The translations under genes and the position numbers were made by a program. The notes below the pieces were generated by a model. It worked only from the letters and a program-made list of their open reading frames with translations. It was not told where the DNA came from and made no database searches. A stretch of DNA of 58,025 nt from an uncultured Bdellovibrionales bacterium (lineage in GTDB: Bacteria > Patescibacteriota > Minisyncoccia > Moranbacterales > JAKLHP01). Positions 1,054 to 48,409 of this stretch are shown here, one piece after another (the stretch's first letter is position 1; every line of letters begins with the position of its first letter). The stretch is from positions 1-58,025 of the forward strand of contig CAYTRS010000001.1 of the NCBI GenBank assembly GCA_964440305.1. The letters are read 5' to 3'.

Positions 1054-1713
1054 ATGCTTTCGGAAACAAAAATAAAATTTTTTACGCACAATCAGCTAAT
1101 CACTTTAATTGTGGCAGTAACATGCATCATTTTGTTCTTTTTCTTCCCTACCGCCAATGTTTTCCAAAATATGATCGCCATGTTTTCTTTTTTAGTTTTA
1201 ATTCCCGCTTTATGTGCTAAGATAGTATTGAAGCAGGATTTGTCAAAATGGGGATTGGCTAAAGGAAATTGGAAGCAGGGGATGAAATGGACGGGAATTT
1301 CTTTTATTGTAGCGCTTTCTTTGTTTTATCTAATTTTCTATTACACTCCGCTTTTTGAAAACTACGGAATTTCCCAAAACATTTCTTCCAGTTTTCGCTT
1401 CTTTCTGTTTTATGAAATAATCTTCATTGGGTTTTTTTTGGCAGCTTATGAGTTTTTTTTCCGCGGAGTGGTGATGCGGGGAATTTTCGGAGATTTTGGA
1501 AAGAGAAGAATTTTAATCCAATTCGTTTTGTTCTTCTTTTTTATTTTAGCGCGAAGAAATTTTAGCTGGTCAGCCGGAGAGTTTCTAATTATCAGTCCCT
1601 TTGCCGGATTAATTTCCCACAAGAGCAAGTCGCTGATTTATTCATTTTGGGCCAGCTGGCTGTTCATAATCATAGTCGACGCGGTTGCGATAGCTTCCGC
1701 TTCGGGGAAATGA
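1054..1713 (+). CDS. CPBP (CAAX/Abi-like) intramembrane protease family protein
   Basis: Polytopic membrane protein with YEFFFRGVVM (ExxxFRG motif 1) and a later LISH motif. Call is tentative. Confidence 0.5.
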   Translation: MLSETKIKFFTHNQLITLIVAVTCIILFFFFPTANVFQNMIAMFSFLVLIPALCAKIVLKQDLSKWGLAKGNWKQGMKWTGISFIVALSLFYLIFYYTPLFENYGISQNISSSFRFFLFYEIIFIGFFLAAYEFFFRGVVMRGIFGDFGKRRILIQFVLFFFFILARRNFSWSAGEFLIISPFAGLISHKSKSLIYSFWASWLFIIIVDAVAIASASGK

Positions 1714-1720: not shown

Positions 1721-4462
1721 ATGAAAAAAAATAGAAATAAAATAAAAAAAATAATATTGGCAGCTTTCCTTGTTTTTGAAGTCGCTTTTTTTAATTTTGG
1801 AATAAACGGAGTCGCAGCCGACCTTGCCGATATGGATCCGGATGATGCAGCCGAAGAAGCGGCCGAAGAGCTTGAAGGGCGCTATAACATAAACTTAGAA
1901 AGCACTAGGGATATAATGCAACAGATGAATGTTACCGGGAACAAGGCTCCCGTTCCGGAAGTGATGGTGACTTTTGAACCTTCCGACCCGAAACCGGGAG
2001 AAAAAGTCACTGCTCATGCTTCACCCATGTATTTCAGCAATCCTTCTGAAGAGCTCTATTACACTTGGTATTTTAAGCCAGCAGGAAGCCCTAGTAATGA
2101 AAATTGTGACAAAAAAATAGTAGAGCTGTATAAGGTTAATGCAATGCGCATAGTTGCTAATGGAGGATTTGATTATGGGCAAGTTGATTATGATGATTTT
2201 AAGGATATACTTTCCGATGACGATGGATATATGGCAACTTTCGGGGGTCATAATAAGTATGAAGGAAGTAACGGCCATTGTTACATCCATGATTTTGAAA
2301 CGGGGGAAAATTACGAATTATTTAAATGGACGTATGATTATGTTAAAGATCCTATGGTGGGAATTTATTGCAATAATGAGGGAAAAAAAGGCGTTTGCGC
2401 AAAAAACATAGGTGAGATTGAAGAAGAGAAGTGCGAAATGTATTCAGGCAAACCTTGTGAGAAAAATCCATTTTGCATATCGGAAAGATATTTTTCAGCT
2501 CCACGTTGCCCAAGTGGCTGGGAACCTTATTGTATGGATAAATCCTTTAGGCGTGAACAAATTATTGAGGGATCTTGTGAGGATTTAAGCAGTGGTATTC
2601 CGCACAGTTTAAATGATTGGGAATTTGACTATGACGAGTTAGGATGCAATCATCTTTTTCCAAAATCCTATGGCGCTACTGGTACTGGAGACGGAAGCTT
2701 TACTCTTGAAGAAGAAGAATTTTGGCAAACTAATCCAGGAGATTCTGATACGGCAGATAATGGAAACTTGGATGAAGCTAATGTGGTGGGTTTGGGACAG
2801 AGCTCTTTTACATGGAATTATCAGGATGGAGATGAAATAGGCGTGGTGGTTGAGGGAACTTCCATGATTCCGACCAAATATGACGATAGTACCTATATGG
2901 TGATGTGGGCTTTCCCCAAGAATGAATGCAAGCCGAAAAATACAGACATTCTTCAATTAGAAGAAAGGGATGATGAAAGCTGGCAGGTTGAAATTCCTAC
3001 TGCCCGGATGGATCTCGATGAATGCTTATGCGACAACTTCATTGATCCCAAGGAAAAAAATTTTCAGAAGCTTGAAGTCACGCTTTCCTATTCTCCCGAC
3101 AATCCGATTAATGATCCCTCTGAAGGTAATTCCGGAGACACGCTCTCTGTACAATCCTCACTGGCTAGCGGAGAAGTGGATTTCTCTTCTCTCAATTATG
3201 ACTGGCAAGTTCAAATAGGAAATGGACCTGATTTTATCGGAGGATTTAAAACCATAACTGGTAAACTGATTGAGGCGGGGTTGATGGAAAGTAGTCAGGG
3301 GAACGGGCTGGATTCCCTTTCTGTTCAACTTAATTTAAACAGCACTAATATAGGAGAGAGCAATTATAAAAACTATCTTAGCGATGGAGAAGCTTACCTC
3401 AAGATAAAGCTAGAAGTGACTGATCCTATAACCGTCCGTAGCGGAAAAAGCGACGTAATTGTGAAGATCATCTCCACTGATGAAAAAATACAAGCGCATA
3501 AAGTTAAAGTAGGAGATGATGGAAAATTGTCATTTGATGATGATATTTGCACTGGCGAGGAAGAAGGAGAGGAAGGAGCTCTTGAAAGGCAAATATGTTT
3601 TGTCGCAAACAACGATATTATCGGGGTGGATTTTCCAGATGGTGATTATTCTAATTTCTCATGGACTTTAGACGGAAAACCGCTTGTCTGCGATGATTCG
3701 ATTTCTTCCGGCTGTTCAACTGCCAATTCAAATGCCAATTTCTTTCCGGTTTCCGGAGAAGCCGGAAAAACTTACACGGTTGGATTGACAGCTACTGAAG
3801 AAGGAGATGCAGATGAAGCAAAAAATACCATCCAGCTTAGCAGAATTTTCAAAATAGTTGAGCCTTACGTTGAAATTGTTTCAAATGACGAGGTTGATAA
3901 AGATTCTATCTGGCGTAGATATTTGGGAAAATACATAACCTTATCGGGAGAATCAAAGGATGATTTCAGTGAAAATGTCTTTGAGGCTTATTCTTACAGC
4001 AATATTGCTCTCAAAGCCAAATTCCATCCTTTCTGGGTGGAGGACAGCTATTCCAATATGAGTTGGTGGCTAAACGGAATAAAAGAAAAGGAGGGGGCAG
4101 AAGATCCTACGGCATTTAATTTTGAAGCTGCGGGGCTTCCCGGGGATTCTTTCAACGTTGCCTTTAATGCGTTTTATGATTATTCGGAAGAAAGGCAAAA
4201 AATCAGAAAAGCCCTGTATGACATTTGGAAAATTTCCAGCTTTGATTCCGCTTCGCAAGGAAATCTTTCTTCCGCAATTCAGATTGAGTTGGTGGAGCCG
4301 GAAAGGATTGCAAAGGCTAATCAGGCAAAGAAATGGGTGGCGGCCATCTTTTCCAATACTCCCAGCAACATATTTTTCATGATCAGGACGGTGCTGACAA
4401 TTTTTCTGGTTCTTGCCGGAAGCTTTCTTGTTTCATCATTAAGACCGGGTAATATTTTATGA
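1721..4462 (+). CDS. Large (913 aa) secreted Cys-rich protein with C-terminal membrane anchor, function unknown
   Basis: N-terminal signal/TM (ILAAFLVFEVAFF), many Cys, and repeated beta-sandwich-like segments ending in Y.W motifs. C-terminal TM (IFFMIRTVLTIFLVLAGSFLV). ATGA overlap with the next gene. Confidence 0.6.
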   Translation: MKKNRNKIKKIILAAFLVFEVAFFNFGINGVAADLADMDPDDAAEEAAEELEGRYNINLESTRDIMQQMNVTGNKAPVPEVMVTFEPSDPKPGEKVTAHASPMYFSNPSEELYYTWYFKPAGSPSNENCDKKIVELYKVNAMRIVANGGFDYGQVDYDDFKDILSDDDGYMATFGGHNKYEGSNGHCYIHDFETGENYELFKWTYDYVKDPMVGIYCNNEGKKGVCAKNIGEIEEEKCEMYSGKPCEKNPFCISERYFSAPRCPSGWEPYCMDKSFRREQIIEGSCEDLSSGIPHSLNDWEFDYDELGCNHLFPKSYGATGTGDGSFTLEEEEFWQTNPGDSDTADNGNLDEANVVGLGQSSFTWNYQDGDEIGVVVEGTSMIPTKYDDSTYMVMWAFPKNECKPKNTDILQLEERDDESWQVEIPTARMDLDECLCDNFIDPKEKNFQKLEVTLSYSPDNPINDPSEGNSGDTLSVQSSLASGEVDFSSLNYDWQVQIGNGPDFIGGFKTITGKLIEAGLMESSQGNGLDSLSVQLNLNSTNIGESNYKNYLSDGEAYLKIKLEVTDPITVRSGKSDVIVKIISTDEKIQAHKVKVGDDGKLSFDDDICTGEEEGEEGALERQICFVANNDIIGVDFPDGDYSNFSWTLDGKPLVCDDSISSGCSTANSNANFFPVSGEAGKTYTVGLTATEEGDADEAKNTIQLSRIFKIVEPYVEIVSNDEVDKDSIWRRYLGKYITLSGESKDDFSENVFEAYSYSNIALKAKFHPFWVEDSYSNMSWWLNGIKEKEGAEDPTAFNFEAAGLPGDSFNVAFNAFYDYSEERQKIRKALYDIWKISSFDSASQGNLSSAIQIELVEPERIAKANQAKKWVAAIFSNTPSNIFFMIRTVLTIFLVLAGSFLVSSLRPGNIL

Positions 4463-5451
4463 CGGGATACTACGTTAGAAAAATAAGGAAGAAGTTTTTT
4501 ATCTTTTTGGCTGTCTTTGCGGTACTCTCTTTTTTCCTGTTTGGATATTTTGAAGTTATGGCGCAAGGATATAATTATGAGCCGATGGAAAAAATTCCCG
4601 GTTTTGAATCGGATGAAGAAAAATATGACTTTCCAAGCTTCATTTTAAATTTATATAAATTCGGCATCTGGACTATCGGAATCGCAGCGCTCCTGATGAT
4701 TATCATTGGAGGATTCAATTATATTGCCAGCGTCAATATTGGAAACACTTCTAAAACCGATACTGCCAAGAAAATGATAATTGACGCCGTTTCCGGACTA
4801 ATTTTGGCGATGTTTGCCTATCTTCTGCTCTTTGTCATCAATCCGGATTTGGTGAAAATAAATTTGTCTATGTTTGAAATCGGAGAAAAAACGGGAGCGG
4901 AACTAAGAGGAGTTACAGCGCCCTCTTCGGTTGTTACGGTTACAATGCCGGCAGATTGTGAAAGCGATGAGTGGCAAAAGATATTCAATGATGCTTCCGG
5001 AGGGGACAAGATGCAAAAATGCATACTTCAGGCTACGGCAGCGAAAGAATCCAGTTGCCAGGAAAATGTCGGAAGGACCGGACCCGGTGCGGGAGATTGC
5101 AGCGTGATGCAGATAAGGGCAGAGGAACATTGCGGAACTACTTGCGAAAATTTGGAAAAAAATCCAGCAGAAGCAGTTAAATGTGCCAAGGGTTATATAA
5201 ACAATAAAATTATTGGTAGCGGAAAAGTGCGGGGAACCGAAGGAAGCGAGCAATGGGTGGAGGATGTTTACGCAGGGTATAATGGCGGACCAGGCGTTTT
5301 AAGCGCTTCGGATGATTGCGATGATTCTCATGAAAATGAATACGGCAATACTGTTGTGAAATATGATTGCCCCATTAATCAAGGCGGATATGTGTTTCTG
5401 GATCGGGTTCTTACGAAGAAATTCCTAAGCCTTTATGAACAGTGCATGTAA
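4459..5451 (+). CDS. Fusion protein: VirB2-like 'T4SS pilin' domain + SLT-type lytic transglycosylase (VirB1-like) domain
   Basis: The N-terminal half has the two-helix pilin pattern (IAALLMIIIGGFNYIASV...TAKKMIIDAVSGLILAMFAYLLLFVINP). The C-terminal half has SLT motifs KESS (catalytic E-S), VMQI and AGYNGGPG. Confidence 0.65.
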   Translation: MTGYYVRKIRKKFFIFLAVFAVLSFFLFGYFEVMAQGYNYEPMEKIPGFESDEEKYDFPSFILNLYKFGIWTIGIAALLMIIIGGFNYIASVNIGNTSKTDTAKKMIIDAVSGLILAMFAYLLLFVINPDLVKINLSMFEIGEKTGAELRGVTAPSSVVTVTMPADCESDEWQKIFNDASGGDKMQKCILQATAAKESSCQENVGRTGPGAGDCSVMQIRAEEHCGTTCENLEKNPAEAVKCAKGYINNKIIGSGKVRGTEGSEQWVEDVYAGYNGGPGVLSASDDCDDSHENEYGNTVVKYDCPINQGGYVFLDRVLTKKFLSLYEQCM

Positions 5452-5488
5452 GTGGCAAGGGAGTATTTTTTATTTTTTTACTCAAAAA

Positions 5489-6655
5489 ATGAACATAATT
5501 AAGCGAATTTTTATTATATCTTCCGTTTTGCTGGCGATGGTGCTTTTTTTTATGGGCATTTATAACCTTTCTTTTAAAAAAGAGGACAATTCTGAAAAAC
5601 AGGAGAAGTTGGGAAATGTTGCGGAGGAAATGGGAAAACCGGAAAAAGAGAACAATTTCTCGCAGAATATTTCCAAGGAAAAAATATACGCGCTGACAGA
5701 CGAAGAAGTGATTGCCCCGGTTTTTGACAAAGAATCGGACAAAGTCGTTTATTATTCCGCTTCCGATGGAAAGGTTTATTCCGTGGAATATTTTAGCGGA
5801 GAAAAAAAAATAATTTCAGGGGATTCACTGGATAGCTTGAAAGATGTTTCCTGGTCTCCAAATAGGAAAAAGGTTATTTCAAAGTTCAATGTTGACGGGA
5901 AGAACACTTTTTATTCATACGACCATGAGAAAAAAATCGGGAAAAAATTGAATGACGGAGTGGATATTGTTTCCTGGTCTAACCTCGGGGACAAGATAAT
6001 TTACAAATTTTACGACAGTGAAAAAAAAGAGCGGTCGCTCAGAACTTGCGATCCGGACGGAAGCAATGAAAACAAGCTGGCGGTTACTCCTTTTAAAATG
6101 CTTAATTTCACTCAAATACCACAGAAGACGGACATTGCTTTTTGGAATTATCCGGATGCGCTTTCAGAAACAAAACTTTCCAGAATAAGCATTGCCGGGG
6201 GAAAAGAAAGTGTTATCTTTTCCGGAAAATACGGAGCGGATTATCTTTGGTCGCCAAGCGGAGATAAAGCTTTGGTAAGTTCTCTGGAAAGCAAGGGAAG
6301 CTCAAAAATGATGCTGGGGCTGATCAATGAAAACGGCGGAGAATACCAAAACCTGGGAATACCCACTTTTGCATCCAAATGCGCATGGTCAAGGGACGGA
6401 AAAGTCGTTTATTATGCGCTTCCCGGATCGCTCTCGGAAGAAAACGTTCTTCCGAACGACTATCAGGATAAAAAAATAATAACCAAAGACACTTTCTGGA
6501 AATTAGATCTCGCTACCGGAAAAAAAGACAGGCTTATTGAACTTTCAGAAATAAAAGAAAGCTATGATGCCGATAAGATGTTCTTGTCAGCGTCGGAAGA
6601 CAGGCTATTTTTTGTAAATCGCCATGACGGAAAATTATACGCGATAAAAATCTAG
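5489..6655 (+). CDS. PD40/TolB-like beta-propeller repeat protein, membrane-anchored
   Basis: Signal anchor (IFIISSVLLAMVLFFMGIY). Repeated WSP(N/S)..K, WSNLGDKIIY, DPDGSNENKL and WSRDGKVVYY blocks typical of PD40 repeats. Start moved to the internal ATG at 5489, after the upstream stop. Confidence 0.6.
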   Translation: MNIIKRIFIISSVLLAMVLFFMGIYNLSFKKEDNSEKQEKLGNVAEEMGKPEKENNFSQNISKEKIYALTDEEVIAPVFDKESDKVVYYSASDGKVYSVEYFSGEKKIISGDSLDSLKDVSWSPNRKKVISKFNVDGKNTFYSYDHEKKIGKKLNDGVDIVSWSNLGDKIIYKFYDSEKKERSLRTCDPDGSNENKLAVTPFKMLNFTQIPQKTDIAFWNYPDALSETKLSRISIAGGKESVIFSGKYGADYLWSPSGDKALVSSLESKGSSKMMLGLINENGGEYQNLGIPTFASKCAWSRDGKVVYYALPGSLSEENVLPNDYQDKKIITKDTFWKLDLATGKKDRLIELSEIKESYDADKMFLSASEDRLFFVNRHDGKLYAIKI

Positions 6656-13570: not shown

Positions 13571-13577
13571 TTTTTTG

Positions 13578-13913: not shown

Positions 13914-13917
13914 GGCA

Positions 13918-14463: not shown

Positions 14464-14492
14464 TTGACAAAACTGAAATTTTTTGCTAGAAT
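14464..14492 (+). promoter_or_regulatory. Near-consensus sigma70-type promoter (TTGACA-17-TGcTAGAAT)
   Basis: TTGACA at 14464-14469, a 17-nt spacer, and an extended -10 tgcTAGAAT at 14487-14492, about 80 nt upstream of the 14574 ORF. Confidence 0.6.
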
Positions 14493-14573
14493 GCAGTGTT
14501 CAGAAAGGATAGAAAGGAGCTGGGTGATTGGCTCTTTGAAAAATTATAAATTCTTTTAGGAAAGGAGTATGAA

Positions 14574-15275
14574 ATGGGCGTAAAAAGTTTCGTAATGGGA
14601 TTTGCTGGGGATATGGGCAAGGAGATTTTAGGAGAACTTTTTGGAGCCAATCTCCTCAAGAACATGATGGCAAAAGTCATGAAGGGGAAAAGTACAATAG
14701 GAGTAAAAGTTAATGAAGCGAAAGAATTACTTCCTGAGATGAAGCAATCGGACCTAGTTCACATGTCCGATGAGATTGCTTTTTTTAATCTAATTGGGAA
14801 GATGGAGCAGAATCCAGAACTAAAGGGTTCCGCGCTTAACACATCGGTTTTTATAAACAATTACCTGAAGGAAGCTTGGCAAAAACAAAACTTCAGGGTT
14901 GTAATGGGAGCCCTTGCTGGAATTGAATATGATGTTCATGGAGGAGAGACTCAAAGGGAGAAAATACCTCGTAAGGGGAAGTCTCCGATTGAAAGGGAAA
15001 AAATTACTCCTCCCAAAAAAGTAAATCTGGGCGTGCAGGTTATGAAGAGCTTTGCGGCTCTAAACTCAGATGAAGAAAGATTGGAGGTGTGCAAAGCTTC
15101 GGGAATTATGGAGCCTACGATAGGTATTAAAATCCGGGAAATCTTAAAGGAACACCCGGAGGTAGCAACAGAGGCGGTAAAGAAAATCAGAAGGGAAATC
15201 CAGAAAAAACCTTACAAAGGTTTTTGGAGAGAACTTCTAAGGTTGCCTGCCAAGAAAAATCAAACTAATGATTAG
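14574..15275 (+). CDS. Hypothetical soluble protein (233 aa), no recognisable family
   Basis: Long ORF with a strong SD (aaGGAGtatgaaATG). No TM segments and no motif I recognise. Its stop overlaps the SD of the next gene (gatTAGGAGGtcaaaATG). Confidence 0.6.
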   Translation: MGVKSFVMGFAGDMGKEILGELFGANLLKNMMAKVMKGKSTIGVKVNEAKELLPEMKQSDLVHMSDEIAFFNLIGKMEQNPELKGSALNTSVFINNYLKEAWQKQNFRVVMGALAGIEYDVHGGETQREKIPRKGKSPIEREKITPPKKVNLGVQVMKSFAALNSDEERLEVCKASGIMEPTIGIKIREILKEHPEVATEAVKKIRREIQKKPYKGFWRELLRLPAKKNQTND

Positions 15276-15284
15276 GAGGTCAAA

Positions 15285-16543: not shown

Positions 16544-16630
16544 GGAAGAGTGGCCGAGTGGTTGAAGGCGCGGCTCTCGAAAAGCCGTAAGGCAGAAATG
16601 TCTTCGGGGGTTCAAATCCCTCCTCTTCCG
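16544..16630 (+). tRNA. tRNA-Ser (anticodon CGA)
   Basis: Acceptor GGAAGAG/CTCTTCC, anticodon stem CGGCT/AGCCG with loop CU-CGA-AA, a long variable arm (aaggcaGAAAtgtctt), T-loop GGGGGTTCAAATCCCTC, discriminator G. CCA is not encoded. Confidence 0.85.
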
Positions 16631-16794
16631 CAATTAAAATTTAGCATGTTCGAATCTTTACCCCATTGAATGACGGGGTTTCTGCCTCCGCCGATTTATT
16701 AGTAGATACTTTTAATTTAAATTCAATTGAATTATTAATTGATTGATTTTGTCATTTTTTGTTTTTGGTGTAAAATTATATAAACGACGCTAAT

Positions 16795-17531: not shown

Positions 17532-18944
17532 ATGAAAATAAAAACCATATCAATAATTGTTATTGTGGCATTCTCCTCCTTTCTTTTTTCTGGATGCTTT
17601 AAAAGCAAGGATCAGGGATACAAGGTCAATTTGGAAATCTGGGGAGCTTTTGATGACAGCGGAACTTTTTCCGAAGCTATCAATGAGTATAGGAAAATAA
17701 ATCCGTATGTCGGTGAGATAAAATACAGGAAACTAACCGTTGATTCTTACAAGAAAGAAGTTATTGACACAATGGCTTCCGGCCAGGGTCCGGATATTTT
17801 TCTGATTCACAATACCTGGCTTCCTTCTTTCAAGGACAAGACAGAGCCTTCTCCTGACTGGATAACAACGGAGCAGGAATTCAGAAATAACTTTGTTGAC
17901 GTAGCGGCGGATGATTTTCTGGATGGAGGAAAAATTTATGCCGTTCCCTTAAGCGTAGATTCACTGGCGCTTTATTACAATAAGGATTTGTTTAATGCGG
18001 CAGGAATAGTCAATCCTCCGTCGACTTGGGAAGAGTTTAATGCCGCTTCCAAAGCGCTTACCAAAATAGGTCCCAATGGGCAAATTATTCAAGCGGGAGC
18101 GGCACTCGGAACTGCCTACAATATTAATCGCTCAACTGATGTTCTGGGCCTGCTGATGTTTCAGAACGGGGTGCAAATGGCAAACAGGGATAAGTTAGAA
18201 GCAACTTTTGACAAGGCTGTTTCCGGTGCGGAAAATTTGCAATATACAAGATCGGGAGAAAACGCCTTGAATTATTATACCCAATTTGCTTCTTCGGGAG
18301 CGATGTATTGCTGGAATCCGACGATGCATTATTCCATAGACGCTTTTTATGAAAATACAGTGGCAATGATGATTAACTATTCCTGGCACTACCAAACCAT
18401 CAAAGCGAAAAATTCCAAGCTAAATTTTGCGGTTGCTCCTGTTCCCCAGCTTTCCAAAGATAACCCGATAAATTATGCGAACTATTGGGGATTTGCGGTT
18501 TCCAAAAATAAAAGTGCAAGCTTGCAGGACGACAGAAAAGAAAAATCCGCCTATGACGAAGAAACCATGAGGAAAGTTCGAATTCATGAATCATGGCAGT
18601 TTTTGAAATTCCTCACGATGAAAAACGGGGGAAAAATAACTCTGCGCAACGGAATTACCGGAAATACGAAAGATTTTCCGATTTCCATAGATCCGGCAAA
18701 AAAATATTCCGAGGAAACCGGAAAGCCGGCAGGCAGACGTGATATAATAGCAGGGCAAAAAGACAGTCCCGTTTTGGGTCCGTTTGCTTATGGGAACCTG
18801 ATAGCCAAAAGCTGGTATCAAAAAGATCCGGAAGCGACGGAGGTAATTCTGGCAGATATGATTGATTCGGTGAATAGGGGAAGATTGAGCTCTTATGAAG
18901 CGCTGAAGCTTGCGGCAAACCGGGTGACGAATTTGATGAGGTAA
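17532..18944 (+). CDS. Extracellular solute-binding lipoprotein (ABC-type, sugar-binding family 1-like)
   Basis: Lipobox LFSGC. GPDIFLIHNTWLPSF, YAVPLSVDSLALYYNKDLF and WEEF are motifs typical of SBP_bac_1. No permease or ATPase genes adjacent. Confidence 0.75.
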   Translation: MKIKTISIIVIVAFSSFLFSGCFKSKDQGYKVNLEIWGAFDDSGTFSEAINEYRKINPYVGEIKYRKLTVDSYKKEVIDTMASGQGPDIFLIHNTWLPSFKDKTEPSPDWITTEQEFRNNFVDVAADDFLDGGKIYAVPLSVDSLALYYNKDLFNAAGIVNPPSTWEEFNAASKALTKIGPNGQIIQAGAALGTAYNINRSTDVLGLLMFQNGVQMANRDKLEATFDKAVSGAENLQYTRSGENALNYYTQFASSGAMYCWNPTMHYSIDAFYENTVAMMINYSWHYQTIKAKNSKLNFAVAPVPQLSKDNPINYANYWGFAVSKNKSASLQDDRKEKSAYDEETMRKVRIHESWQFLKFLTMKNGGKITLRNGITGNTKDFPISIDPAKKYSEETGKPAGRRDIIAGQKDSPVLGPFAYGNLIAKSWYQKDPEATEVILADMIDSVNRGRLSSYEALKLAANRVTNLMR

Positions 18945-18954
18945 ACAGCGACAC

Positions 18955-19030
18955 CAATCCACGAATGCATGCGAATGCTACGAATATTTCGTGTCATTCG
19001 TGTGTAATTCGTATTATTTGCATCGCTTAT
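18955..19030 (+). repeat. CATTCG-word hairpin module (copy F) abutting a start codon
   Basis: ccacgaatgcatgcgaatgctacgaatatttcgtgtcattcgtgtgtaattcgtattatttgcatcgcttat|ATG. Imperfect ~24-nt inverted arms. Confidence 0.7.
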
Positions 19031-20038
19031 ATGAAAATAAATATAAAAATCGGTTTAATAATTTTTCTGTTTTCCTTTTTTGGTTTTGTTGAAATCAACA
19101 AAGTCAATGCGGCTGCAGGATTGGGAGATGCATGCAGCGCTTTATCTGGAGGAGTTACTTGTGATTCAGGATTGACTTGTGTTGATTGCCCATATATGAA
19201 CTGCGCTTTTCCCAAATGGTGCCAGACAGTTGCGGGATGGCCGGATTATTTTCCTAAAGATAAAAATGGACTTAAGGAATGTTCAGTCGTTGCTGATTGT
19301 GTTAGCACTTTTGATTATTTGTTGTGTATGCCTTGTGAAAAAATGAGTGCATTCGCGTGTGCATCCGGAGGATTATGTGTGAGCAGTAGTATGCCTACAG
19401 CACTATTTAATGAATACATAGAAAGAGTTTCCGAATCCGATCCTTCTGTTGATGAGGAGGGTGACGACCCTTCTGTAGACGAAGAAGATGATAGTGACGG
19501 TGCCATCACCCCAACCGCTTTTACCAACCCTCTCGATTTCTCTACCGTAGAAGGTTTCCTTGCCAGCGTCCTCAATAGCCTTAGAACCATCATCGCCATC
19601 CTCGCCATCATATTTATGATTATCGGAGGAATCCTCTATATCACCTCCGTCGGAAACGAAAAGCAGATTACCACCGCCAAACACGCCATGACCTATGCCA
19701 TGGTCGGTCTGGCCATCGGAGTAGCCGCCCCCTCCTTCCTCAAAGAAATAGCTACTATCCTTGAATGGGGCGCTACCGATGAGGAATTGACGGGAGAATT
19801 GACAAAAGCCCTCACTCTTGCCGAAATCGGCCTTAACGTCCTCAACTTCCTCCTTTCCATCGTCGGAGTGCTGGCTCTCATTATGATGGTAGTCGGAGGA
19901 ATAATGTATTTTACCGCTGCCGCCGACGAAAAACAGGTGGAAACCGCCAAAAAGATATTCAAATACGCCATCTATGGAATCACCATTTCCCTAGCTTCAC
20001 TTCTAATTGTGAAACAAATTGGGAGTTTATTGGTGTAG
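19031..20038 (+). CDS. Cys-rich head + acidic linker + two tandem VirB2-like 'T4SS pilin' domains
   Basis: Signal peptide, ~95-aa region with ~14 Cys, and a 9-aa tandem repeat DPSVDEEGD/DPSVDEEDD. Two copies of the pilin pattern follow (IIGGILYITSVGNEKQITTAKHAMTYAMVGLAIG and VVGGIMYFTAAADEKQVETAKKIFKYAIYGITIS). Start set at ATG 19031, not 18965, because the upstream ORF part reads through repeat F. Confidence 0.65.
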   Translation: MKINIKIGLIIFLFSFFGFVEINKVNAAAGLGDACSALSGGVTCDSGLTCVDCPYMNCAFPKWCQTVAGWPDYFPKDKNGLKECSVVADCVSTFDYLLCMPCEKMSAFACASGGLCVSSSMPTALFNEYIERVSESDPSVDEEGDDPSVDEEDDSDGAITPTAFTNPLDFSTVEGFLASVLNSLRTIIAILAIIFMIIGGILYITSVGNEKQITTAKHAMTYAMVGLAIGVAAPSFLKEIATILEWGATDEELTGELTKALTLAEIGLNVLNFLLSIVGVLALIMMVVGGIMYFTAAADEKQVETAKKIFKYAIYGITISLASLLIVKQIGSLLV

Positions 20039-20094
20039 AATTATTAATTATAGTTTTGAAATTTGTAATTTGAGCTTTGAAATTTAATCTTATT

Positions 20095-20550
20095 ATGTTA
20101 TTTAATGTTCCCCAATATATTGACATAGAAGACAAGATTGTCGGTCCGCTGACTGCAAAGCAGCTTCTTTGGATGATTGGAATGGGAGGAACCCTCTTGG
20201 TTCTCTGGGCTATTTTGGAAAAAACTGCATTTTTTTTCTCCGCTATTCCGGTTATTTTAATTTTTGTCGCGCTGGCATTCTATCGGCCGCACAACCAGCC
20301 TCTGTCTAGATTTATCGGACTCGGGTTTGTTTATTTTCTGCATCCGAAAATATATTTTTGGAAAAGGGAAGCGGAAGAGCTGAAAAAGACTTCAGGAGAA
20401 GGAAAGAAAAAAGAAGCTCCGGGCGAGCAAGGCAAAAAAATATCCGCCGATGATCTGGAGGTTTTGGCAAGAACCTTGGACAGCGAAGGAAGGGAAAGGA
20501 GCGAAAGAGTGATGCAATTAATAAAAGAAAGAAGAAAAAAAAATAGTTAG
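20095..20550 (+). CDS. PrgI-family (VirB3-like) T4SS membrane protein
   Basis: N-terminus MLFNVPQYIDIEDKIVGPLTAKQLLWMIGMGG followed by two TM helices, which matches the PrgI-family signature. ATG 20095 preferred over TTG 20077. Confidence 0.7.
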   Translation: MLFNVPQYIDIEDKIVGPLTAKQLLWMIGMGGTLLVLWAILEKTAFFFSAIPVILIFVALAFYRPHNQPLSRFIGLGFVYFLHPKIYFWKREAEELKKTSGEGKKKEAPGEQGKKISADDLEVLARTLDSEGRERSERVMQLIKERRKKNS

Positions 20551-20627
20551 TCCACAATCATTAGCAAACATTTCACGGATAAAATTAGAAATACTGTGAA
20601 CTACTGACTGCGGACTAATAACTAAAT

Positions 20628-21323
20628 ATGGAATTTTTAAATCCGAAAAAAGCATCGGGAAAAAACGGAGGAGCCAGCACTCAAAAATATATTGATGTGG
20701 AAAAGGTGGAGGATGGAGCAATAGTGCTAAAAAACGGCGCCTTGCGGGCGGTCCTGCTTGTTTCCTCCATTAATTTTGATTTGAAGTCCACGGAAGAGCA
20801 GGACTCAATTATCGGCCAATATCAAGGGTTTTTGAACTCCCTGGACTTTCCGGTGGAGATTTTGATAAGCTCCAGAAAGCTTAATATTCAGCCGTACCTT
20901 GATTTTTTGGAAAGCAAAGAACGCCAGCAAACAAACGAGCTTTTGCGCCTTCAAATTTCCGAGTATCGGGGATTTATCAAAAATTTGACCGAGGTTTCGA
21001 ATATAATGTCAAAATCCTTTTATATCATCGTTCCTTTTTCTCCGATAGAAAGCAAAGAAGGGGGATTTTTTGAAAAGATTTCCTCGATTATGAATCCGAA
21101 GCAAGTGATTTCCCAAAAGAAAGAGCTCTTTGAAACCTACAAGAACCAGCTTTGGCAGAGAGTAGATCACATTTCCGAATCATTGAGCGGAATAGGGGTG
21201 AATATAGTTCCGCTTAAAACGGAAGAAGCAATAGAGCTGCTGTATAATTCATACAATCCGTCAACTTATACCAATTCAATAATCAAAAATATCCAAGACG
21301 TGGAATTAAAGAATAATTTTTAG
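20628..21323 (+). CDS. Hypothetical protein resembling the N-terminal domain of VirB4-type ATPases (no NTPase motifs)
   Basis: IDVEKVEDGAIVLKNGALRAVLLVSSINFDLKSTEEQDSIIGQYQGFLNSLDFPVEILI parallels IIAPSALRVSINHVQVGETVAKTFFVITYP...IINIDFPMNIAMFI in the next ORF. Alignment was done by eye only. Confidence 0.5.
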   Translation: MEFLNPKKASGKNGGASTQKYIDVEKVEDGAIVLKNGALRAVLLVSSINFDLKSTEEQDSIIGQYQGFLNSLDFPVEILISSRKLNIQPYLDFLESKERQQTNELLRLQISEYRGFIKNLTEVSNIMSKSFYIIVPFSPIESKEGGFFEKISSIMNPKQVISQKKELFETYKNQLWQRVDHISESLSGIGVNIVPLKTEEAIELLYNSYNPSTYTNSIIKNIQDVELKNNF

Positions 21324-21325
21324 TT

Positions 21326-23143
21326 ATGTTTAAATTCGGAAAAAAAGATAAAAAAGAGACGGCAGTAGAGCTTCTTGACAGCGAAAGACTGTATCAGGAA
21401 GGCCAAGCGACGGTGAAGGATATTATTGCTCCTTCCGCGTTGCGCGTGTCAATTAATCATGTTCAGGTTGGTGAAACAGTGGCAAAAACATTTTTCGTGA
21501 TAACCTATCCAAGGTATCTTCACTCCAATTGGTTCTCGCCGATTATTAATATTGATTTTCCGATGAACATTGCAATGTTCATCCATCCGATGGATAACGG
21601 AGAAATTCTCAAAAGCCTTCGCAAAAGCGCGACTCAAGTAGAATCGCGGATTCAAATGGAAGCGGAAAGCGGAAAAATCAGGGATCCTATTTTGGAAACC
21701 GCCATCAAAGACATTGAAGACCTTCGGGACAAATTGCAGCAGGGAACGGAAAGATTTTTCCATTTCGGGCTTTATATGACTGTTTATGGGCAGAGCTTGG
21801 AGGAAGTAAATAAGATAGGCCGACAAATTGAAGCGATACTTGAAGCCCAGTTGGTTTATGTGAAAGAATCAGTTTTGAAGTCCGAACAAGGCTTTGCTTC
21901 CACTCTTCCTTTAGCCAATGATCAGCTTAATATTGCCAATAATCTTAACACCTCTCCCTTGTCTACTACTTTTCCTTTCATTTCTTCCGATCTTTCTTCC
22001 AATGAAGGAATTCTTTATGGAATAAACAGGCACAATAACAGTTTGGTTCTTTTTGACCGGTTTAAAATGGAAAACGCCAATATGGTGGTTTTTGCCAAAT
22101 CCGGAGCCGGAAAAAGCTATACGGTAAAGCTGGAAGTCTTGCGCTCCATGATGATGGGAACAGAAGTCATCATCATTGATCCGGAAAATGAATATCGTTA
22201 TTTGGCGGAAACAGTCGGAGGAACATTTATTAAAGTTTCCCTAGATTCAAAATCGCACCTCAATCCGTTCGATCTTCCGAAAATTGGAGATGAGGAAAAC
22301 CCGGAAGATGTTATCCGTAACACCATTGCCGGTCTCATCGGACTGCTCCACTTGATGCTGGGATCGGTTACCCCTGAAGAAGATTCAATTTTGGACAGAG
22401 CAATTAGAGAGACATATAACCTTCGCGACATTACCCCAGAAAGCAATTTTAAAGCCTTTACTCCCAATTCTTTTCCGACAATGACGGATCTTTATGAAGT
22501 TTTGTCCAATATGGAGGGGGCGGAATCTCTCGCCCAAAGGCTGGAAAAATATACCGAAGGAATTTTTTCCGGATTTCTCAATCATCCATCCAATGTCAAA
22601 ATTGACAGTCAAATAGTTGTTTTTAATATCAGAGATCTGGAGGAGGAGCTTCGCCCAGTGGCGATGTATATCGTTCTTCAGTTTATTTGGAATGAAATGA
22701 GATCAGAAGTGAGAAAAAGGCTAGTGGTAGTGGATGAAGCCTGGGTGATGATGCAGAATGAAGATGCCGCCTCTTTCCTTTTCGGAATTGCCAAGAGATG
22801 CCGCAAATATTATACCGGACTCACGACAATCACTCAAGACATTGCTGATTTTATGGCATCCAGATATGGAAAGCCCATAGTTACCAACTCTTCTATGCAG
22901 CTCCTTTTGCGCCAATCCCCGGCGGCGATTGACACGATCGTGGAAACTTTTTACCTTACTGACCAGGAAAAATTTCTGCTTCTGGAAAGCAATGTCGGAG
23001 AGGGAATATTTTTTGCCGGTCCCAAACACGCAGCTATCAAAGTCATTGCTTCCTATAGCGAAGACCAGGTGATTACTTCCGATCCCAGGCAACTTATGGA
23101 AATAGAAGAGGCTAAAAAAGAATTCAATGAGGAAAATGGATAA
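21326..23143 (+). CDS. VirB4/TrsE/PrgJ-like T4SS ATPase
   Basis: Walker A VVFAKSGAGKSYTVK, Walker B RLVVVDEAWVMM, then TTITQDIADF and LLLRQ. The N-domain pattern 'I.P....V......VG......F.V..YP' is typical of the VirB4 family. Confidence 0.8.
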   Translation: MFKFGKKDKKETAVELLDSERLYQEGQATVKDIIAPSALRVSINHVQVGETVAKTFFVITYPRYLHSNWFSPIINIDFPMNIAMFIHPMDNGEILKSLRKSATQVESRIQMEAESGKIRDPILETAIKDIEDLRDKLQQGTERFFHFGLYMTVYGQSLEEVNKIGRQIEAILEAQLVYVKESVLKSEQGFASTLPLANDQLNIANNLNTSPLSTTFPFISSDLSSNEGILYGINRHNNSLVLFDRFKMENANMVVFAKSGAGKSYTVKLEVLRSMMMGTEVIIIDPENEYRYLAETVGGTFIKVSLDSKSHLNPFDLPKIGDEENPEDVIRNTIAGLIGLLHLMLGSVTPEEDSILDRAIRETYNLRDITPESNFKAFTPNSFPTMTDLYEVLSNMEGAESLAQRLEKYTEGIFSGFLNHPSNVKIDSQIVVFNIRDLEEELRPVAMYIVLQFIWNEMRSEVRKRLVVVDEAWVMMQNEDAASFLFGIAKRCRKYYTGLTTITQDIADFMASRYGKPIVTNSSMQLLLRQSPAAIDTIVETFYLTDQEKFLLLESNVGEGIFFAGPKHAAIKVIASYSEDQVITSDPRQLMEIEEAKKEFNEENG

Positions 23144-23148
23144 ACGGT

Positions 23149-23856
23149 ATGTATATTGATTCACCGGAAAAAATAAGAAAACAGAAACTAGAACTGGAAA
23201 GAAATAATCTTTCCAGTTTGTCTAATAGAAAAAAAAGAAAAGAAAATGCTGAAAGAAATAGGAATTTTGAAGCACTTGGCTTTAAGAGGAAAAAGGGAGA
23301 CTCGAAAGATTCCTATAAAGAAAATTTTCCTGAAAATCTTATTCTTAATTCCGCCAATAAAGAAAGATTGCGGATGGCAAGAGCAGAAGTGAAGCGCGGG
23401 GTTGATGAAGCGGAAAACAACTCCAATACTTACGGAGAAGCTTTAGGATCTTTGAGCAGAGCAAGCAGGGGTGGAATTGCAGCTCCGGTTGAAGCATTAA
23501 AATTGGCTCATAGCTTCCGTCAAAAAGTTAAAGATCACGATAATTCTCCATATATTGTTTTGATATTAGTTGCGGTTGCCGCCGACTTTGCCGATTTTCT
23601 ATGGATAGCGGGCGTGTTTGGAAAGCTGCTTCTTTTCTATTTTCTTTGGGGAAAAGGAACTCTTAAGGTTAAGATAATTTTGAGAGCCCTTTTATTTATT
23701 GATTGCATTCCCTTTGTTGGCTGGCTTCCATTAAGCACAATTTCCGTGCTTTATGCTTGGAGAAATTCACATAAAGAAGCGGAAGAGGCTAAAGAAAAAC
23801 TGGAAAAGATGAATAAAAAAGGAATTCCGGATGAAGAATATTCCGAAGCAGCATAG
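23149..23856 (+). CDS. Hypothetical membrane protein (basic N-terminal region, 3 C-terminal TM helices) in the T4SS-like cluster
   Basis: Starts 5 nt after the VirB4 stop. TM helices YIVLILVAVAADFADFLWIAGVF, KLLLFYFLW and LLFIDCIPFVGWLPLSTISVLYAW. Confidence 0.55.
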   Translation: MYIDSPEKIRKQKLELERNNLSSLSNRKKRKENAERNRNFEALGFKRKKGDSKDSYKENFPENLILNSANKERLRMARAEVKRGVDEAENNSNTYGEALGSLSRASRGGIAAPVEALKLAHSFRQKVKDHDNSPYIVLILVAVAADFADFLWIAGVFGKLLLFYFLWGKGTLKVKIILRALLFIDCIPFVGWLPLSTISVLYAWRNSHKEAEEAKEKLEKMNKKGIPDEEYSEAA

Positions 23857-23987
23857 GCAGGCATAAAGTATTATGCGAAATATAAAGGGTGCTTTATTGA
23901 ATTTAACTGGACTATACACTATACTTTATACATAATCCCTGCCCGCAATGCTTCGCTTAGCGATACAGCGGGATTGACATACAATTT

Positions 23988-25516
23988 ATGCCTTCTAAAG
24001 TATTTTCCGCGGCGACAATCGGCCTTCAAAGTGAACTTGTGGAAGTAGAGGTGGATGTTTTGGGCCAAGGACTTCATAACTTTACCATAGTCGGACTTCC
24101 CGACACTTCTATAAAAGAATCGCGCGACAGGGTTTCTTCCGCTCTCAAGAATAGCGGATTCAAGCCTCCGCATCAGTGCGGGCGAATTACGGTCAACTTG
24201 GCTCCGGCCGATCTTCCCAAATTAAGCCCGATTTATGATCTTCCTATCGCGCTGGGCTTTCTTTTGGCAACCGGACAGCTCAATTTTGACCATAAAAAAA
24301 GATGTTTCTCGGAGAACTGGCGCTGGACGGAAGAGCCCGCCCGGTGCAGGGAGTTCTGCCTATCACTCTTTTTGCCAAAAGCAAGGGCTTTGAAGAAGTT
24401 TATGTTCCTCAAGAAAATGCGGCGGAAGCCAGTGTTGTTAGGGGAATAAAAGTAATTCCTGTAAAAAATCTTTACTTTTTAGTTGGGCATTTGGCAGGAA
24501 ACCAGCCGATTGATGTTTTTCCTCCGATTGACCACGAAAGCATATTTAAAAGTGGTGGAGATAATTTGATGGATATGGGATATATCAAGGGGCAGGAACA
24601 GGCGAAAAGAGCGCTGGAAATCGCAGCAGCGGGCGGGCACAATGTAATTTTCAACGGTCCTCCGGGGTCGGGAAAAACGCTTCTGGCAAAAACTATGCCT
24701 TCAATCCTGCCGCGCCTTAATCTTGATGAAAGCCTGGAAATAACCAAAATTTTTTCCATTTCCGGAAGGCTTCCTAAGGAAAAGCCTTTGGTAGTAAACC
24801 GTCCGTTCCGGTCGCCTCATCATAGTGCTAGTTCCGTATCATTGGTTGGAGGAGGAACTTATCCAAAGCCGGGGGAAATAAGTTTGGCGCACCGCGGAGT
24901 TTTGTTTTTGGATGAATTTGCAGAATTTCCAAGACCTGTTTTGGAGAATCTCCGCCAGCCGCTGGAAGACGGGGTAATCACAGTTTCGCGTGCGAAAGGT
25001 TCCCTTGAATTTCCGGCAAGATTCATTTTGGTGGCGGCGATGAATCCGTGTCCCTGTGGAAACGCGACTGATCCGGAAAAAGTCTGCTCCTGCACCCCAT
25101 CGCAGATAATAAAATACCAGAGAAAAATTTCCGGTCCGATTCTGGATCGGATCGATCTCCATGTGGAAGTGCCTAGGCTCAAATTTGAAAAACTGGAAAA
25201 AACAAAATCTGGAGAAGGGAGCGCTGATATTCGCGAAAGAGTAGAAAGAGCCAGGGAAATTCAGTCTAAAAGGCTTATAGATCTTCCAATTATGACCAAT
25301 AGTGAAATGGGTTCGGAACACATTGAAAAGCTTTGCCCCTTGGGAAAAGAAAGCATGGAACTCCTGCGGAGCGCCGTTTCCAGCCTGCGCTTGAGCGCGC
25401 GTGCCTATTTCCGGCTGATAAAAGTCGCCAGAACTATCGCGGATTTGGAAGAGGCAGAAAATATTCTGCCGGCTCATATTGCTGAAGCAGTGCAGTATAG
25501 ATTCAAAACCGAGTAA
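23988..25516 (+). pseudogene. comM: ComM/YifB Mg-chelatase-like AAA+ protein, interrupted by a frameshift at an A7 tract (24294-24300)
   Basis: ORF 23988-24449 encodes the N-domain (...LPIALGFLLATGQLNFDHKK). ORF 24302-25516 continues with MFLGELALDGRARPVQGVLP, Walker A GPPGSGKT, Walker B LFLDEF and a CPCG zinc motif. One extra A would give a continuous ...FDHKKKMFLGELALDG. Confidence 0.8.
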
Positions 25517-25622
25517 ATTAAAAATTCAAAATGCAAAGTTAAAAATCAAGGTGTCCAAGGCGGACTTACAAATTTATATTCGTGTCATTCGTATGCAAAT
25601 TCGTGTCATTCGTATCGCTATT
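25517..25622 (+). repeat. Composite intergenic element, copy D (full length, archetype)
   Basis: attaaaaattcaaaatgcaaagttaaaaatcaaGGTGTCCAAGGCGGACTTACAaatttatattcgtgtcattcgtatgcaaattcgtgtcattcgtatcgctatt. Core at 25550-25570. Confidence 0.8.
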
Positions 25623-26543
25623 TTACTTCTTATTTTTTTGTCTTGTGGAAATCCCACTCTCGCTTTTTGGAATGGGGATGAAGAATTGGATTTTGAATCG
25701 GGAAATAAAAAAGTGACTGTTTGCGACGAAGGAATATGTGGAGAAATTGCGAATAAGGATTCTGGGACAGTCGAGGAGTTTTTGGAAAAAGAAAAAATAG
25801 ATCTGGGCGAAAAAGACATTATTTTTCCGGCAAAGGGAGAAAAGCTGTATTCCGGAGGAAAAATAATAATTGAAAGGGCAAAAAAAGTAAGCATTCTTTC
25901 TGACGGAAAAAAAACTGAAAAATATGTTTTCGGAAGGGTTGTAAGGGAGGCGCTAATGGAAAGCGAGATAGCTTTAGGAGAAGATGATATATCCCATCCT
26001 TCCCTAGAATCTCCGATTTACGGAGAGACTAAAATTGAAGTTATTCGGGTAGATATAAGGGAGGAAATGGTAAATAGGGACATAGCCTTTAATAAAATAG
26101 TGACGCAGGACGACAAGATGAGCTGGCGGGAGAAAAAAATCAAGCAGAAGGGAGTAAAAGGAATAGAAGAAATAAAATACAAGGTTGTTTCGCACAATGG
26201 AAAAGAAATTTCCCGTAAAGTTATGACAAAGAGAATTGCCAAAGATCCGGTGGAAGAAATTTCAGTGGAAGGAACCTATGTAAAAGTCGGAAAGACACAC
26301 AAGGGTCTGGGAACTTGGTATGCTTTCAAAGGCGGGCTGTTTGCGGCTAATCCTTGGCTTCCGATGGGAAGCTATGTTAGAGTTACCAACAAAGAAAATG
26401 GAAAATCGGTAATTGTCCAAATCAACGACCGCGGACCATTCGGTCCGGGGAGAATAATAGACTTGGATAAAGTCGCTTTTGAAAAAATTGCCAGCATTGG
26501 CGCGGGAGTGATTGACGTTAAGATGGAAGAAATACTTAATTAG
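25593..26543 (+). CDS. YabE/RpfB-like cell-wall protein: 2x DUF348-like + G5 + RlpA-like double-psi beta-barrel domain
   Basis: G5-like segment (KKIKQKGVKGIEEIKYKVVSHNGKEISRKV) and C-terminal GLGTWYAF...MGSYVRVTNKENGKSVIVQINDRGPFGPGRIIDLDKVAFEKIA (RlpA/3D-type DPBB). The start is uncertain. ATG 25593 lies inside repeat D. The 25479 start overlaps comM and was rejected. Confidence 0.65.
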   Translation: MQIRVIRIAILLLIFLSCGNPTLAFWNGDEELDFESGNKKVTVCDEGICGEIANKDSGTVEEFLEKEKIDLGEKDIIFPAKGEKLYSGGKIIIERAKKVSILSDGKKTEKYVFGRVVREALMESEIALGEDDISHPSLESPIYGETKIEVIRVDIREEMVNRDIAFNKIVTQDDKMSWREKKIKQKGVKGIEEIKYKVVSHNGKEISRKVMTKRIAKDPVEEISVEGTYVKVGKTHKGLGTWYAFKGGLFAANPWLPMGSYVRVTNKENGKSVIVQINDRGPFGPGRIIDLDKVAFEKIASIGAGVIDVKMEEILN

Positions 26544-47923: not shown

Positions 47924-48409
47924 ATGTTTAACAGAACGGCAAAAGTAGCCTTCTTGCTGATTTTTCTGGGAATAATTTTATTTCCGCGGGTTTCTCTAGG
48001 TCAAATTTGTATTGAAGGGGAAGAAGGGGTTGTTCCTTGCGGACGGAGTTGTGATGTAGAATCTACTCCGGGAGATGAAACTGCTCCTTGTACGCTTTGC
48101 CATCTAATTGTAGGAATAAAGGCTTTAATTGACTTCGGGATGAAAATTTTGGTTTACGCGGCAATTTTGGTAATTGTCATAGCAGGCATATTTTATATTG
48201 TTTCAACAGGAAATACGGAAATGATGGCCAAGGCGAAAAAAACTCTTTGGAACGTGCTTACCGGCTTTGCTTTAGTCTTGGGCGCGTGGCTTATTGTGAA
48301 TGTTGTTTTAGTTTGGCTTTTGCCTACCCGGGAAGACTTTGGAATAGAAAGGACTTCCTGGAGTGATATTGAATGTTCCACGGAAAGTTCGGTGGTCTTG
48401 CCAGAATAA
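47924..48409 (+). CDS. VirB2-like 'T4SS pilin' family protein with Cys-rich head
   Basis: Signal peptide, a 6-Cys head (CIEGEEGVVPCGRSCDVESTPGDETAPCTLC), then VIAGIFYIVSTGNTEMMAKAKKTLWNVLTGFALVLGAWLIV. Same pattern as 4459 and 19031. Confidence 0.65.
   Translation: MFNRTAKVAFLLIFLGIILFPRVSLGQICIEGEEGVVPCGRSCDVESTPGDETAPCTLCHLIVGIKALIDFGMKILVYAAILVIVIAGIFYIVSTGNTEMMAKAKKTLWNVLTGFALVLGAWLIVNVVLVWLLPTREDFGIERTSWSDIECSTESSVVLPE

Follow-up and report, generated by a model that had tools for sequence, protein, structure and literature searches.

Five co-directional genes at positions 19031–23856 of a 58,025-nt stretch of DNA (the whole stretch analyzed, hereafter the window) in all likelihood constitute the cytoplasmic-membrane core operon of a chromosomal type IV secretion system (T4SS) of the Patescibacteria type, nested in the monoderm MPF-FATA class and serving an epibiotic lifestyle. 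The host genome is that of a Candidatus Moranbacteria (Paceibacteria). On the analysis presented below, the machine very probably serves host contact and macromolecule transfer across the interface, and not conjugation. A first-pass annotation of the same DNA had proposed a minimal, ComB-like module with comM as a functional neighbor, acting in DNA uptake or host contact. Its preference for host contact or transfer over conjugation is borne out, whereas minimality, the ComB likeness and the link to comM are not. Both the object and that hypothesis are already in the literature, where the system was described in 2023–2025, and the locus adds no new kind of system.

The five genes are present on the + strand where they had been proposed, with gaps that do not exceed 80 nt (38, 77, 2 and 5 nt from g1 through g5) and with families that agree with the initial assignments:

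19031..20038, + strand: g1, secreted or membrane tandem VirB2-like pilin (PF18895)
20077..20550, + strand: g2, PrgI/VirB3-like protein with two transmembrane (TM) helices (PF12666)
20628..21323, + strand: g3, TrsD-like soluble protein, a detached VirB4 N-terminal domain (NCBIfam, PF26593, fold)
21326..23143, + strand: g4, VirB4 ATPase of the CD1110/MPF-FATA type (NF045971, PDB 4AG5)
23149..23856, + strand: g5, fast-evolving membrane protein (position next to VirB4)

A promoter and terminator scan of 18800–24100 gave counts no higher than those of shuffled sequences, so operon boundaries cannot be inferred from it.

The ATPase carries most of the identification. The translation of g4 contains the Walker A motif FAKSGAGKS and the Walker B motif VVVDEAW, and the protein scores 375.8 bits against the NCBIfam model of CD1110-family VirB4 proteins (NF045971, cut-off 325 bits), compared with 31–134 bits against VirB4/CagE-type models (VirB4/ComB4), 52.9 bits in a partial short alignment against CedB (NF041017, cut-off 700 bits) and 15.7 bits against HerA. 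The alignment with the CD1110 profile spans positions 178–729 of 752, and the first ~177 positions of the family are absent from g4. Sequence matches in the PDB are VirB4 proteins only, the best being 4AG5 at 2.6e-50, followed by TrwK, with no HerA or FtsK among them. An assignment as a HerA/FtsK-type ATPase is thereby ruled out, and the call of a VirB4 made at first reading is upheld. More than 8000 homologues were found, the best of which are 75–81% identical and come from metagenome-assembled genomes named Candidatus Moranbacteria, Moraniibacteriota or Parcubacteria. Judged from its nearest neighbors and the published tree, g4 would fall in the Patescibacteria clade within MPF-FATA.

The gene that ends 2 nt before g4 encodes a 231-aa protein that had been likened to a VirB4 N-domain, and three lines of evidence agree with that likeness. 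First, g3 matches the N-terminal part of NCBIfam VirB4 models (positions 90–233 of Mbov_0397, E = 3e-10; positions 2–120 of CD1110) as well as TrsD/TraD (E = 8e-7). Second, its precomputed Pfam family is the TraC-like PF26593, with no match in the local Pfam copy. Third, an AF2 model (pLDDT 66.7) compared with the PDB by Foldseek returned TrwK/VirB4 of R388 as all of its top 14 matches, with probability 1.0 and TM-scores of at most 0.54, the next match having a probability of 0.18; a PDB sequence search with g3 gave no match, and fold comparison alone yielded these. Together, g3 (231 aa) and g4 (605 aa) approach the length of a normal VirB4, such as TrwK (823 aa).

For comparison with relatives, GTDB species representatives were scanned, which yielded 80 species-level loci with 10 kb flanks. 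The loci were compared by tblastn with the window proteins and by iterative profiles on called ORFs, and family counts are given out of 84 loci. The division of VirB4 into two genes is kept in 83 of the 84 loci and in Bacillota, which rules out a sequencing frameshift between g3 and g4. There are 3554 homologues of g3, TrsD being 64–76% identical across many species, and the VirB4 and TrsD alignments retain the Walker motifs together with hundreds of invariant columns.

The two genes upstream of the motor encode further T4SS components. The g2 product exceeds the cut-off of the PrgI family (39.8 bits against 27 for PF12666), and a PrgI of this type adjoins TrsD–VirB4 in 69/84 loci. An alternative ATG at 20095 (151 aa) is the start used in public gene calls. 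The ORF of g1 opens at 18965, but the gene call of another assembly (L001, SRR12983659) places the start at 19031, where a signal-peptide-like segment begins. The protein is composed of a signal peptide, a Cys-rich ectodomain (12 Cys, at residues 35–116), an acidic repeat linker SDPSVDEEGDDPSVDEEDD and two T4SS_pilin domains with two TM helices each. PF18895 matches in two stretches (E = 1.5e-16), and the Mbov_0395 pilin-like model NF045849 matches at E = 1e-7, below its family cut-off. The two pilin domains share 28/66 identical residues, and their alignment scores 154 against 33 ± 7 for shuffles. The tandem, Cys-rich pilin recognized by the first reading is thus an internal duplication.

The last gene of the operon, g5, had been described as a protein with three TM helices. 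Its membrane character stands, and the number of C-terminal hydrophobic helices is 3–4; they follow a charged N-terminal half, and the conserved motifs A-x-x-K/x-D and (N)F/L-LP are present. No Pfam or NCBIfam family was matched by g5, and 10 sequence homologues only were found. An AF2 model from an 11-sequence alignment was poor (pLDDT 54, pTM 0.22). The iterative profile family nevertheless occupies position +1 of VirB4 in 46 loci, and g5 is a positionally conserved partner of VirB4.

The components that would define a conjugation locus are absent. Pfam and NCBIfam scans covered 50 of the window ORFs of at least 100 aa (ORFs nested antisense inside a longer ORF and a 135-aa ORF at 57518–57925 were set aside), and none of these 50 matched a relaxase, VirD4 or VirB6/8/9/10/11, as the first reading had held. 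A full conjugative set might have been located just outside the window; however, two Logan contigs of the same organism that reach 10 kb past each window end (78 kb in total) contain no relaxase, type IV coupling protein (T4CP) or other T4SS genes. The sole FtsK-like protein is encoded at 43448, and its 4TM, alpha and gamma domains of the FtsK type identify it as the chromosomal FtsK. No integrase or repeats typical of an integrative and conjugative element (ICE) were seen in the Pfam scans of the window.

The surroundings are those of a core chromosome in an origin-proximal context, marked by rnpA, rpmH and ksgA. The rpmH-rnpA-yidC-jag genes lie on the minus strand at 12330–14164, the window also contains Wzy, glycosyltransferase and flippase genes as well as ksgA, uvrD, lgt, dnaG, rpoD, ftsK, recA, rpsF, ssb, efp, uvrB and uvrA, and its GC content is even throughout. 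The left flank includes rpoC, a beta-propeller protein, PNPase and a NERD protein, and the right flank GDSL lipases, a MacB-type ABC system and acyl-carrier genes. As a separate observation, no dnaA diverges from rpmH (14030–14164, minus strand); the interval 14165–16421 holds instead unk233 and unk378, found only in this organism, the latter with 5 TM helices and a hydrophilic tail, and these are followed by a tRNA-Ser(CGA) at 16544–16631.

A second group of four genes in the window, together with an additional pilin gene, corrects the view of the five genes as a minimal module:

1054..1713, + strand: p219, 6-TM homologue of CPBP/Rce1-like intramembrane proteases (orthologues match PF02517)
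1721..4462, + strand: p913, 913-aa surface protein (TM helices, Cys count, position)
4459..5451, + strand: p330, signal peptide, T4SS pilin domain and C-terminal SLT lytic transglycosylase domain (VirB1-like)
5435..6655, + strand: p406, N-terminal TM helix and predicted extracellular beta-propeller (Pfam, position)
47924..48409, + strand: pilin161, Cys-bearing T4SS pilin paralogue (PF18895)

The module p219/p913/p330/p406 is positioned 12.4 kb upstream of g1, beyond a polysaccharide and rnpA-yidC-jag block. Because these four genes directly follow VirB4-g5 in most relatives, the cluster has been split in the window by a rearrangement. The window thus holds two pieces of one cluster rather than a five-gene minimal machine. 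Each of the nine cluster ORFs is intact.

The individual assignments in this module vary in their basis. PF02517 is matched by 8 of 14 p219 orthologues (best E = 5e-8), and p219 directly follows VirB4-g5 in other Moranbacteria, at position +2 in 20 loci. Its consideration as a VirB6 analogue was rejected: relatives hold both p219 and a VirB6-like gene, and the p219 orthologues match CPBP. The p913 product contains 18 Cys, an N-terminal signal or anchor and a C-terminal TM helix, gives no Pfam match, and has family members downstream of VirB4 in 47 loci; it could be an adhesin or a component that spans the cell wall. For p330, first read as a pilin-VirB1 fusion, the pilin match falls below the cut-off (PF18895, E = 6e-4), with a motif that is conserved in the family alignment, and the SLT match (PF01464) improves from E = 0.0077 in the window copy to 2.6e-10 in the best orthologue. 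SLT was matched in 4 of 5 aligned family sequences (the window copy and 3 of 4 orthologues), and the C-terminal domain displays the ES...MQ...AGYN motifs of family-1 lytic transglycosylases. A PDB sequence search with p330 returned nothing meaningful, and the C-terminal profile was dominated by spurious polyubiquitin repeats, with EmtA and lysozyme only at E ~0.1. Because the PDB searches were unhelpful, the SLT assignment is drawn from the orthologue Pfam matches and the motifs, and on these the fusion is sustained. Finally, p406 matches a beta-propeller Pfam weakly (E = 1e-4), and its family, found 3–5 genes past VirB4, closes the conserved part of the cluster in relatives.

The pilin paralogue after recA was also recognized correctly at first reading. 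The pilin161 product scores 32.1 bits against PF18895 (cut-off 26.6 bits), and its gene starts 8 nt after recA, an arrangement shared by another strain (L089). In the nearest relatives (L006–L009), a pilin161 homologue is found just upstream of g1, in the order pilin161-like, g1-like, PrgI.

In relatives, the cluster comprises about 12 genes in a recurrent order: (TSP3-repeat surface protein) - u372 - VirB6-like - u353 - PrgI - TrsD - VirB4, continued by g5 - p219 - p913 - pilin(-SLT) - p406. Past p406 follow minus-strand Wzy, flippase, jag, yidC and rnpA genes. This order is kept across classes in a core chromosomal context, with the following representation of the families:

TrsD: 83/84 loci, position -1 of VirB4 in 81
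PrgI: 69/84 loci
u353, no Pfam family: 60/84 loci
VirB6-like: 57/84 loci
g5: 49/84 loci, position +1 of VirB4 in 46
p913: 47/84 loci
p330: 47/84 loci
p406: 42/84 loci
p219: 26/84 loci, all of the Moranbacteria type

The VirB6-like protein of these relatives is polytopic, 667–890 aa long, and has weak TrbL/VirB6 Pfam matches (E = 5e-5 to 4e-3). The genes u372, VirB6-like and u353 are located 2–5 kb upstream of PrgI in L011–L084 (e.g. L017, 4537–8760).

A mechanism for such a machine can be proposed from the homology, fold, conservation and gene order described here, and for the rest from the biology of R388, pKM101 and Gram-positive T4SSs. The motor would be a VirB4 in two parts, with g3 as its TrsD-like N-domain and g4 as its ATPase body, and PrgI/VirB3 (g2) would tether the VirB4 hexamer to the membrane through the N-domain, here a separate polypeptide. 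The motor may pull VirB2-type pilins (g1, p330 and pilin161) from the membrane and polymerize them into a pilus or contact tube. The SLT domain of p330 would open the cell wall, and the Cys-rich surface protein p913 and the beta-propeller p406 may provide extracellular structure or adhesion. The module at 1054–6655 is presumed to belong to the same machine, separated from the core by rearrangement, and g5 could be a lineage-specific membrane subunit of the complex.

Several points weigh against this interpretation. A profile built from the VirB6-like family of 57 loci detects no such gene in the window and its 10 kb flanks, although it is kept in these 57 of the 84 loci; profile searches of the same 78 kb likewise found no member of the u353 and u372 families. 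The machine may therefore be incomplete, or its parts scattered. VirB6 is missing or undetectable in many other Patescibacteria genomes too (PMC12102498). For p219 of the window, no significant match to CPBP was obtained, and the first motif Glu is replaced by Tyr. The role given to g5 is a guess from position, with a poor model behind it.

T4SS-like systems that lack a T4CP include the importers ComB and Ced, and T4CP-independent exporters include Ptl and Brucella VirB; the absence of a nearby T4CP is therefore compatible with both. Within the reading of the cluster as a T4SS for host contact and macromolecule transfer, we lean slightly toward the uptake of host material over the export of effectors.

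Export of protein effectors or toxins into a host bacterium, either coupling-protein-independent or through a distant T4CP, as in Ptl, Brucella VirB and the bacteria-killing T4SSs, is possible, if doubtful. It would employ the same core machinery, and the cluster contains wall-cutting (SLT) and surface proteins as its own parts. Effector delivery has been put forward as speculation by the authors of previous studies (PMC11665869, PMC10633639), and T4CP homologues are common in Patescibacteria, usually far from virB4 (PMC12102498). By contrast, no T4CP is found within 78 kb, no candidate effector-immunity pairs were recognized beside the genes, and in Southlakia the T4CP is non-essential while the T4SS is essential (PMC12102498).

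A ComB- or Ced-like DNA-uptake machine coupled to ComM, in which the pilus and VirB4 import host or environmental DNA and ComM aids its recombination, is unlikely. The notion draws on the neighbor of the operon:

23988..25516, + strand: comM, neighboring gene (ChlI, Mg_chelatase, Mg_chelatase_C)

As the first-pass annotation stated, comM is the next gene downstream of g5 on the same strand. The distance is 131 nt, and the adjacency recurs in six related species. A pilin gene follows recA, and the neighborhood contains no T4CP or relaxase, a lack shared with the importers ComB of H. pylori and Ced of archaea. That Patescibacteria T4SSs may take up DNA or other macromolecules of their hosts is already a published hypothesis (PMC12102498; PMC11665869). 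The annotation of a T4SS-derived apparatus in a monoderm agrees with the relaxase-less, T4CP-less module, its pilin paralogues and the pilin-SLT fusion found here. In the class ABY1, moreover, T4SS loci co-localize with comF, recG and radA (PMC12102498).

The partnership with comM, however, is not conserved. Direct adjacency to g5 is confined to the organism of the window and its six nearest species (L005–L010, VirB4 76–80% identical). Other Moranbacteria carry a housekeeping block comM-rlpA-ksgA-ubiA-uvrD at 6–9 kb upstream of PrgI (e.g. L022), and tblastn detected comM in 0 of 47 non-Moranbacteria loci. Because the adjacency is confined to one subclade, it represents a lineage-specific rearrangement in the origin-proximal region and not a conserved linkage; the juxtaposition of comM with the core operon is incidental. 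ComM is, furthermore, a cytoplasmic helicase of recombination, whose action follows entry through ComEC. The VirB4 class of g4, given by the scores above, and the lack of ComB6-10 equivalents also argue against this reading. In Southlakia, comEC is needed for transformation and dispensable for growth, and the essentiality of the T4SS is independent of comEC (PMC12857230, PMC10633639). The gene after comM (25479–26543) encodes a DUF348-G5-DPBB wall protein, with the architecture of an RlpA-like lytic transglycosylase or Rpf-type protein; in Moranbacteria, this gene, comM and ksgA move together as one block.

The reading frame of comM speaks against the coupling as well. In the window, the domains of ComM are spread over two ORFs of 153 and 404 aa by a frameshift in a poly-A tract (24294–24300), which is A7 in the window and in two assemblies (SRR12983662, SRR13007709), that is, in 3 of 4 assemblies. 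In L001 the tract is A8, which results in an intact 509-aa ComM, with identical surrounding DNA. Related species display interrupted codons at the same spot. The A7/A8 difference reflects either on/off variation by strand slippage or an assembly error in the homopolymer. A phase-variable version of the uptake idea, in which the tract, as a lineage-specific homopolymer, switches comM and thereby links T4SS import of host nucleic acid to recombination, is very unlikely; if true, a phase-variable ComM would toggle between feeding and gene acquisition.

A decaying, functionless remnant of a Gram-positive ICE, by now without relaxase, coupling protein and VirB6, is the least credible of the alternatives: the ICE/plasmid CD1110 type of the VirB4, the cluster in two pieces, the VirB6-like gene missing from 78 kb and the frameshifted comM next to it would suit such a remnant, but intact ORFs throughout the cluster, the identity levels of VirB4 and TrsD across many species with their Walker motifs and invariant columns, a gene order conserved across classes in a core chromosomal context of host-like GC, the lack of ICE-typical integrase or repeats in the Pfam scans and the essentiality of the homologous genes in Southlakia (PMC10633639) all contradict it.

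The Patescibacteria T4SS is nearly universal in a phylum that holds a large share of bacterial diversity and is essential for epibiotic growth in the one species tested. The locus adds three comparative points. In Paceibacteria and related classes, g5, the CPBP protease, the giant surface protein, the pilin-SLT fusion and the TM beta-propeller keep their positions relative to VirB4 and are candidate subunits. The T4SS cluster tolerates splitting. Clusters on Bacillota megaplasmids with the same core content, and the same order in Pontibacillus, bear on whether the pilin is ancestral to the monoderm system.

Comparison with known systems places the locus among monoderm machines. The ComB system of H. 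pylori, a diderm MPF-T machine in which ComB6-10 correspond to VirB6-10, resembles the window operon in the order pilin, VirB3, VirB4, in the absence of relaxase, VirD4 and VirB11, and in not being used for conjugation. ComB feeds ComEC. The window differs in that its scans revealed no ComB6-10 equivalents and in that g4 belongs to a different VirB4 class. The ComB precedent has already been invoked for the Patescibacteria T4SS in reviews (PMC12857230, PMC11665869).

The crenarchaeal Ced system (CedA, CedA1, CedA2, CedB) likewise combines a VirB4-family ATPase with a conjugative-type pilin and no T4CP. It sets a precedent for import by a T4SS-like machine where the envelope is monoderm-like. 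Nevertheless, g4 remains far below the CedB cut-off, and no CedA-like proteins were identified.

Closer correspondence is found with the monoderm MPF-FATA conjugation systems, namely TrsC-TrsD-TrsE of pGO1/pSK41, CTn2 of C. difficile (CD1110) and the Mycoplasma ICE (Mbov_0395, Mbov_0397). The g4 protein passes the CD1110 cut-off, g3 has matches to TrsD/TraD and to the N-terminal region of Mbov_0397, and the order VirB3, TrsD, VirB4 is shared. Unlike these, the window system is chromosomal and vertically conserved, and the analysis revealed neither a relaxase or T4CP nor an oriT or mobile-element context, which indicates that it is not a conjugation system, in agreement with the first reading.

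A tblastn search of plasmids with g3 retrieved TrsD-like genes that stand alone, on megaplasmids of Bacillota and on plasmids of haloarchaea. The cluster of Pontibacillus sp. ALD_SL1 (L093, NZ_CP062975.1 351801-361354) reads pilin-like (Mbov_0395 family), pilin, VirB6-like (779-aa, 8-TM), PrgI-like, TrsD-like, short CD1110 VirB4 (621 aa) and a large M23 hydrolase, and the window-family profiles match it at 6e-21 (pilin), 2e-20 (VirB6-like), 5e-15 (PrgI) and 2e-48 (TrsD). The plasmid pGspE55-1 of Geobacillus subterraneus (L094) carries a weak pilin-like gene, PrgI, TrsD-like, VirB4, a weak VirB6-like candidate and an M23 hydrolase. Both plasmids are typed as non-mobilizable. These Bacillota clusters differ from the window in having an M23 peptidoglycan hydrolase in place of the pilin-SLT fusion, and have no homologues of g5, p219, p913 and p406. 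They suggest that monoderm T4SSs outside Patescibacteria can also possess pilin-like genes and a VirB4 in two parts. Because clusters of similar order occur in Bacillota, the order pilin-VirB3-VirB4 is generic and not a ComB signature, and the nearest relatives in architecture are monoderm systems.

The chromosomal T4SS of Patescibacteria is the system to which the window corresponds. VirB4 was found in 2,417 of 3,035 Patescibacteria assemblies; its sequences there are monophyletic within MPF-FATA, and TrsD is the most frequent partner (Quinonero-Coronel et al. 2025, PMC12102498). The same study documents the gene set and genomic setting seen in the window for 2,407 assemblies. The published repertoire includes PrgI/VirB3, VirB6 and VirB2-like pilins, arrays among them; relaxases are almost absent, and virB4 is close to dnaA, rnpA, rpmH and ksgA (PMC12102498). 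The window departs from other members in its division into two modules ~12 kb apart with no VirB6-like gene within 78 kb, in a lead pilin that is one ORF with a Cys-rich head and two pilin domains instead of a single-domain array, and in the comM brought beside the operon in its subclade. It agrees with them in the adjacent TrsD and VirB4, PrgI/VirB3 and VirB2-like pilins with several divergent paralogues, in the absence of a relaxase and of a nearby T4CP, in the proximity of rnpA, rpmH and ksgA, and in nearest homologues that are all from Patescibacteria. Tn-seq of Ca. Southlakia epibionticum ML1 showed that epibiotic growth requires the T4SS with its pilin array (SEML1_0006-0019; Wang et al. 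2023, PMC10633639), and tubular structures, possibly T4SS pili, have been seen between a Minisyncoccota parasite and its host (bioRxiv 10.64898/2026.06.21.733656).

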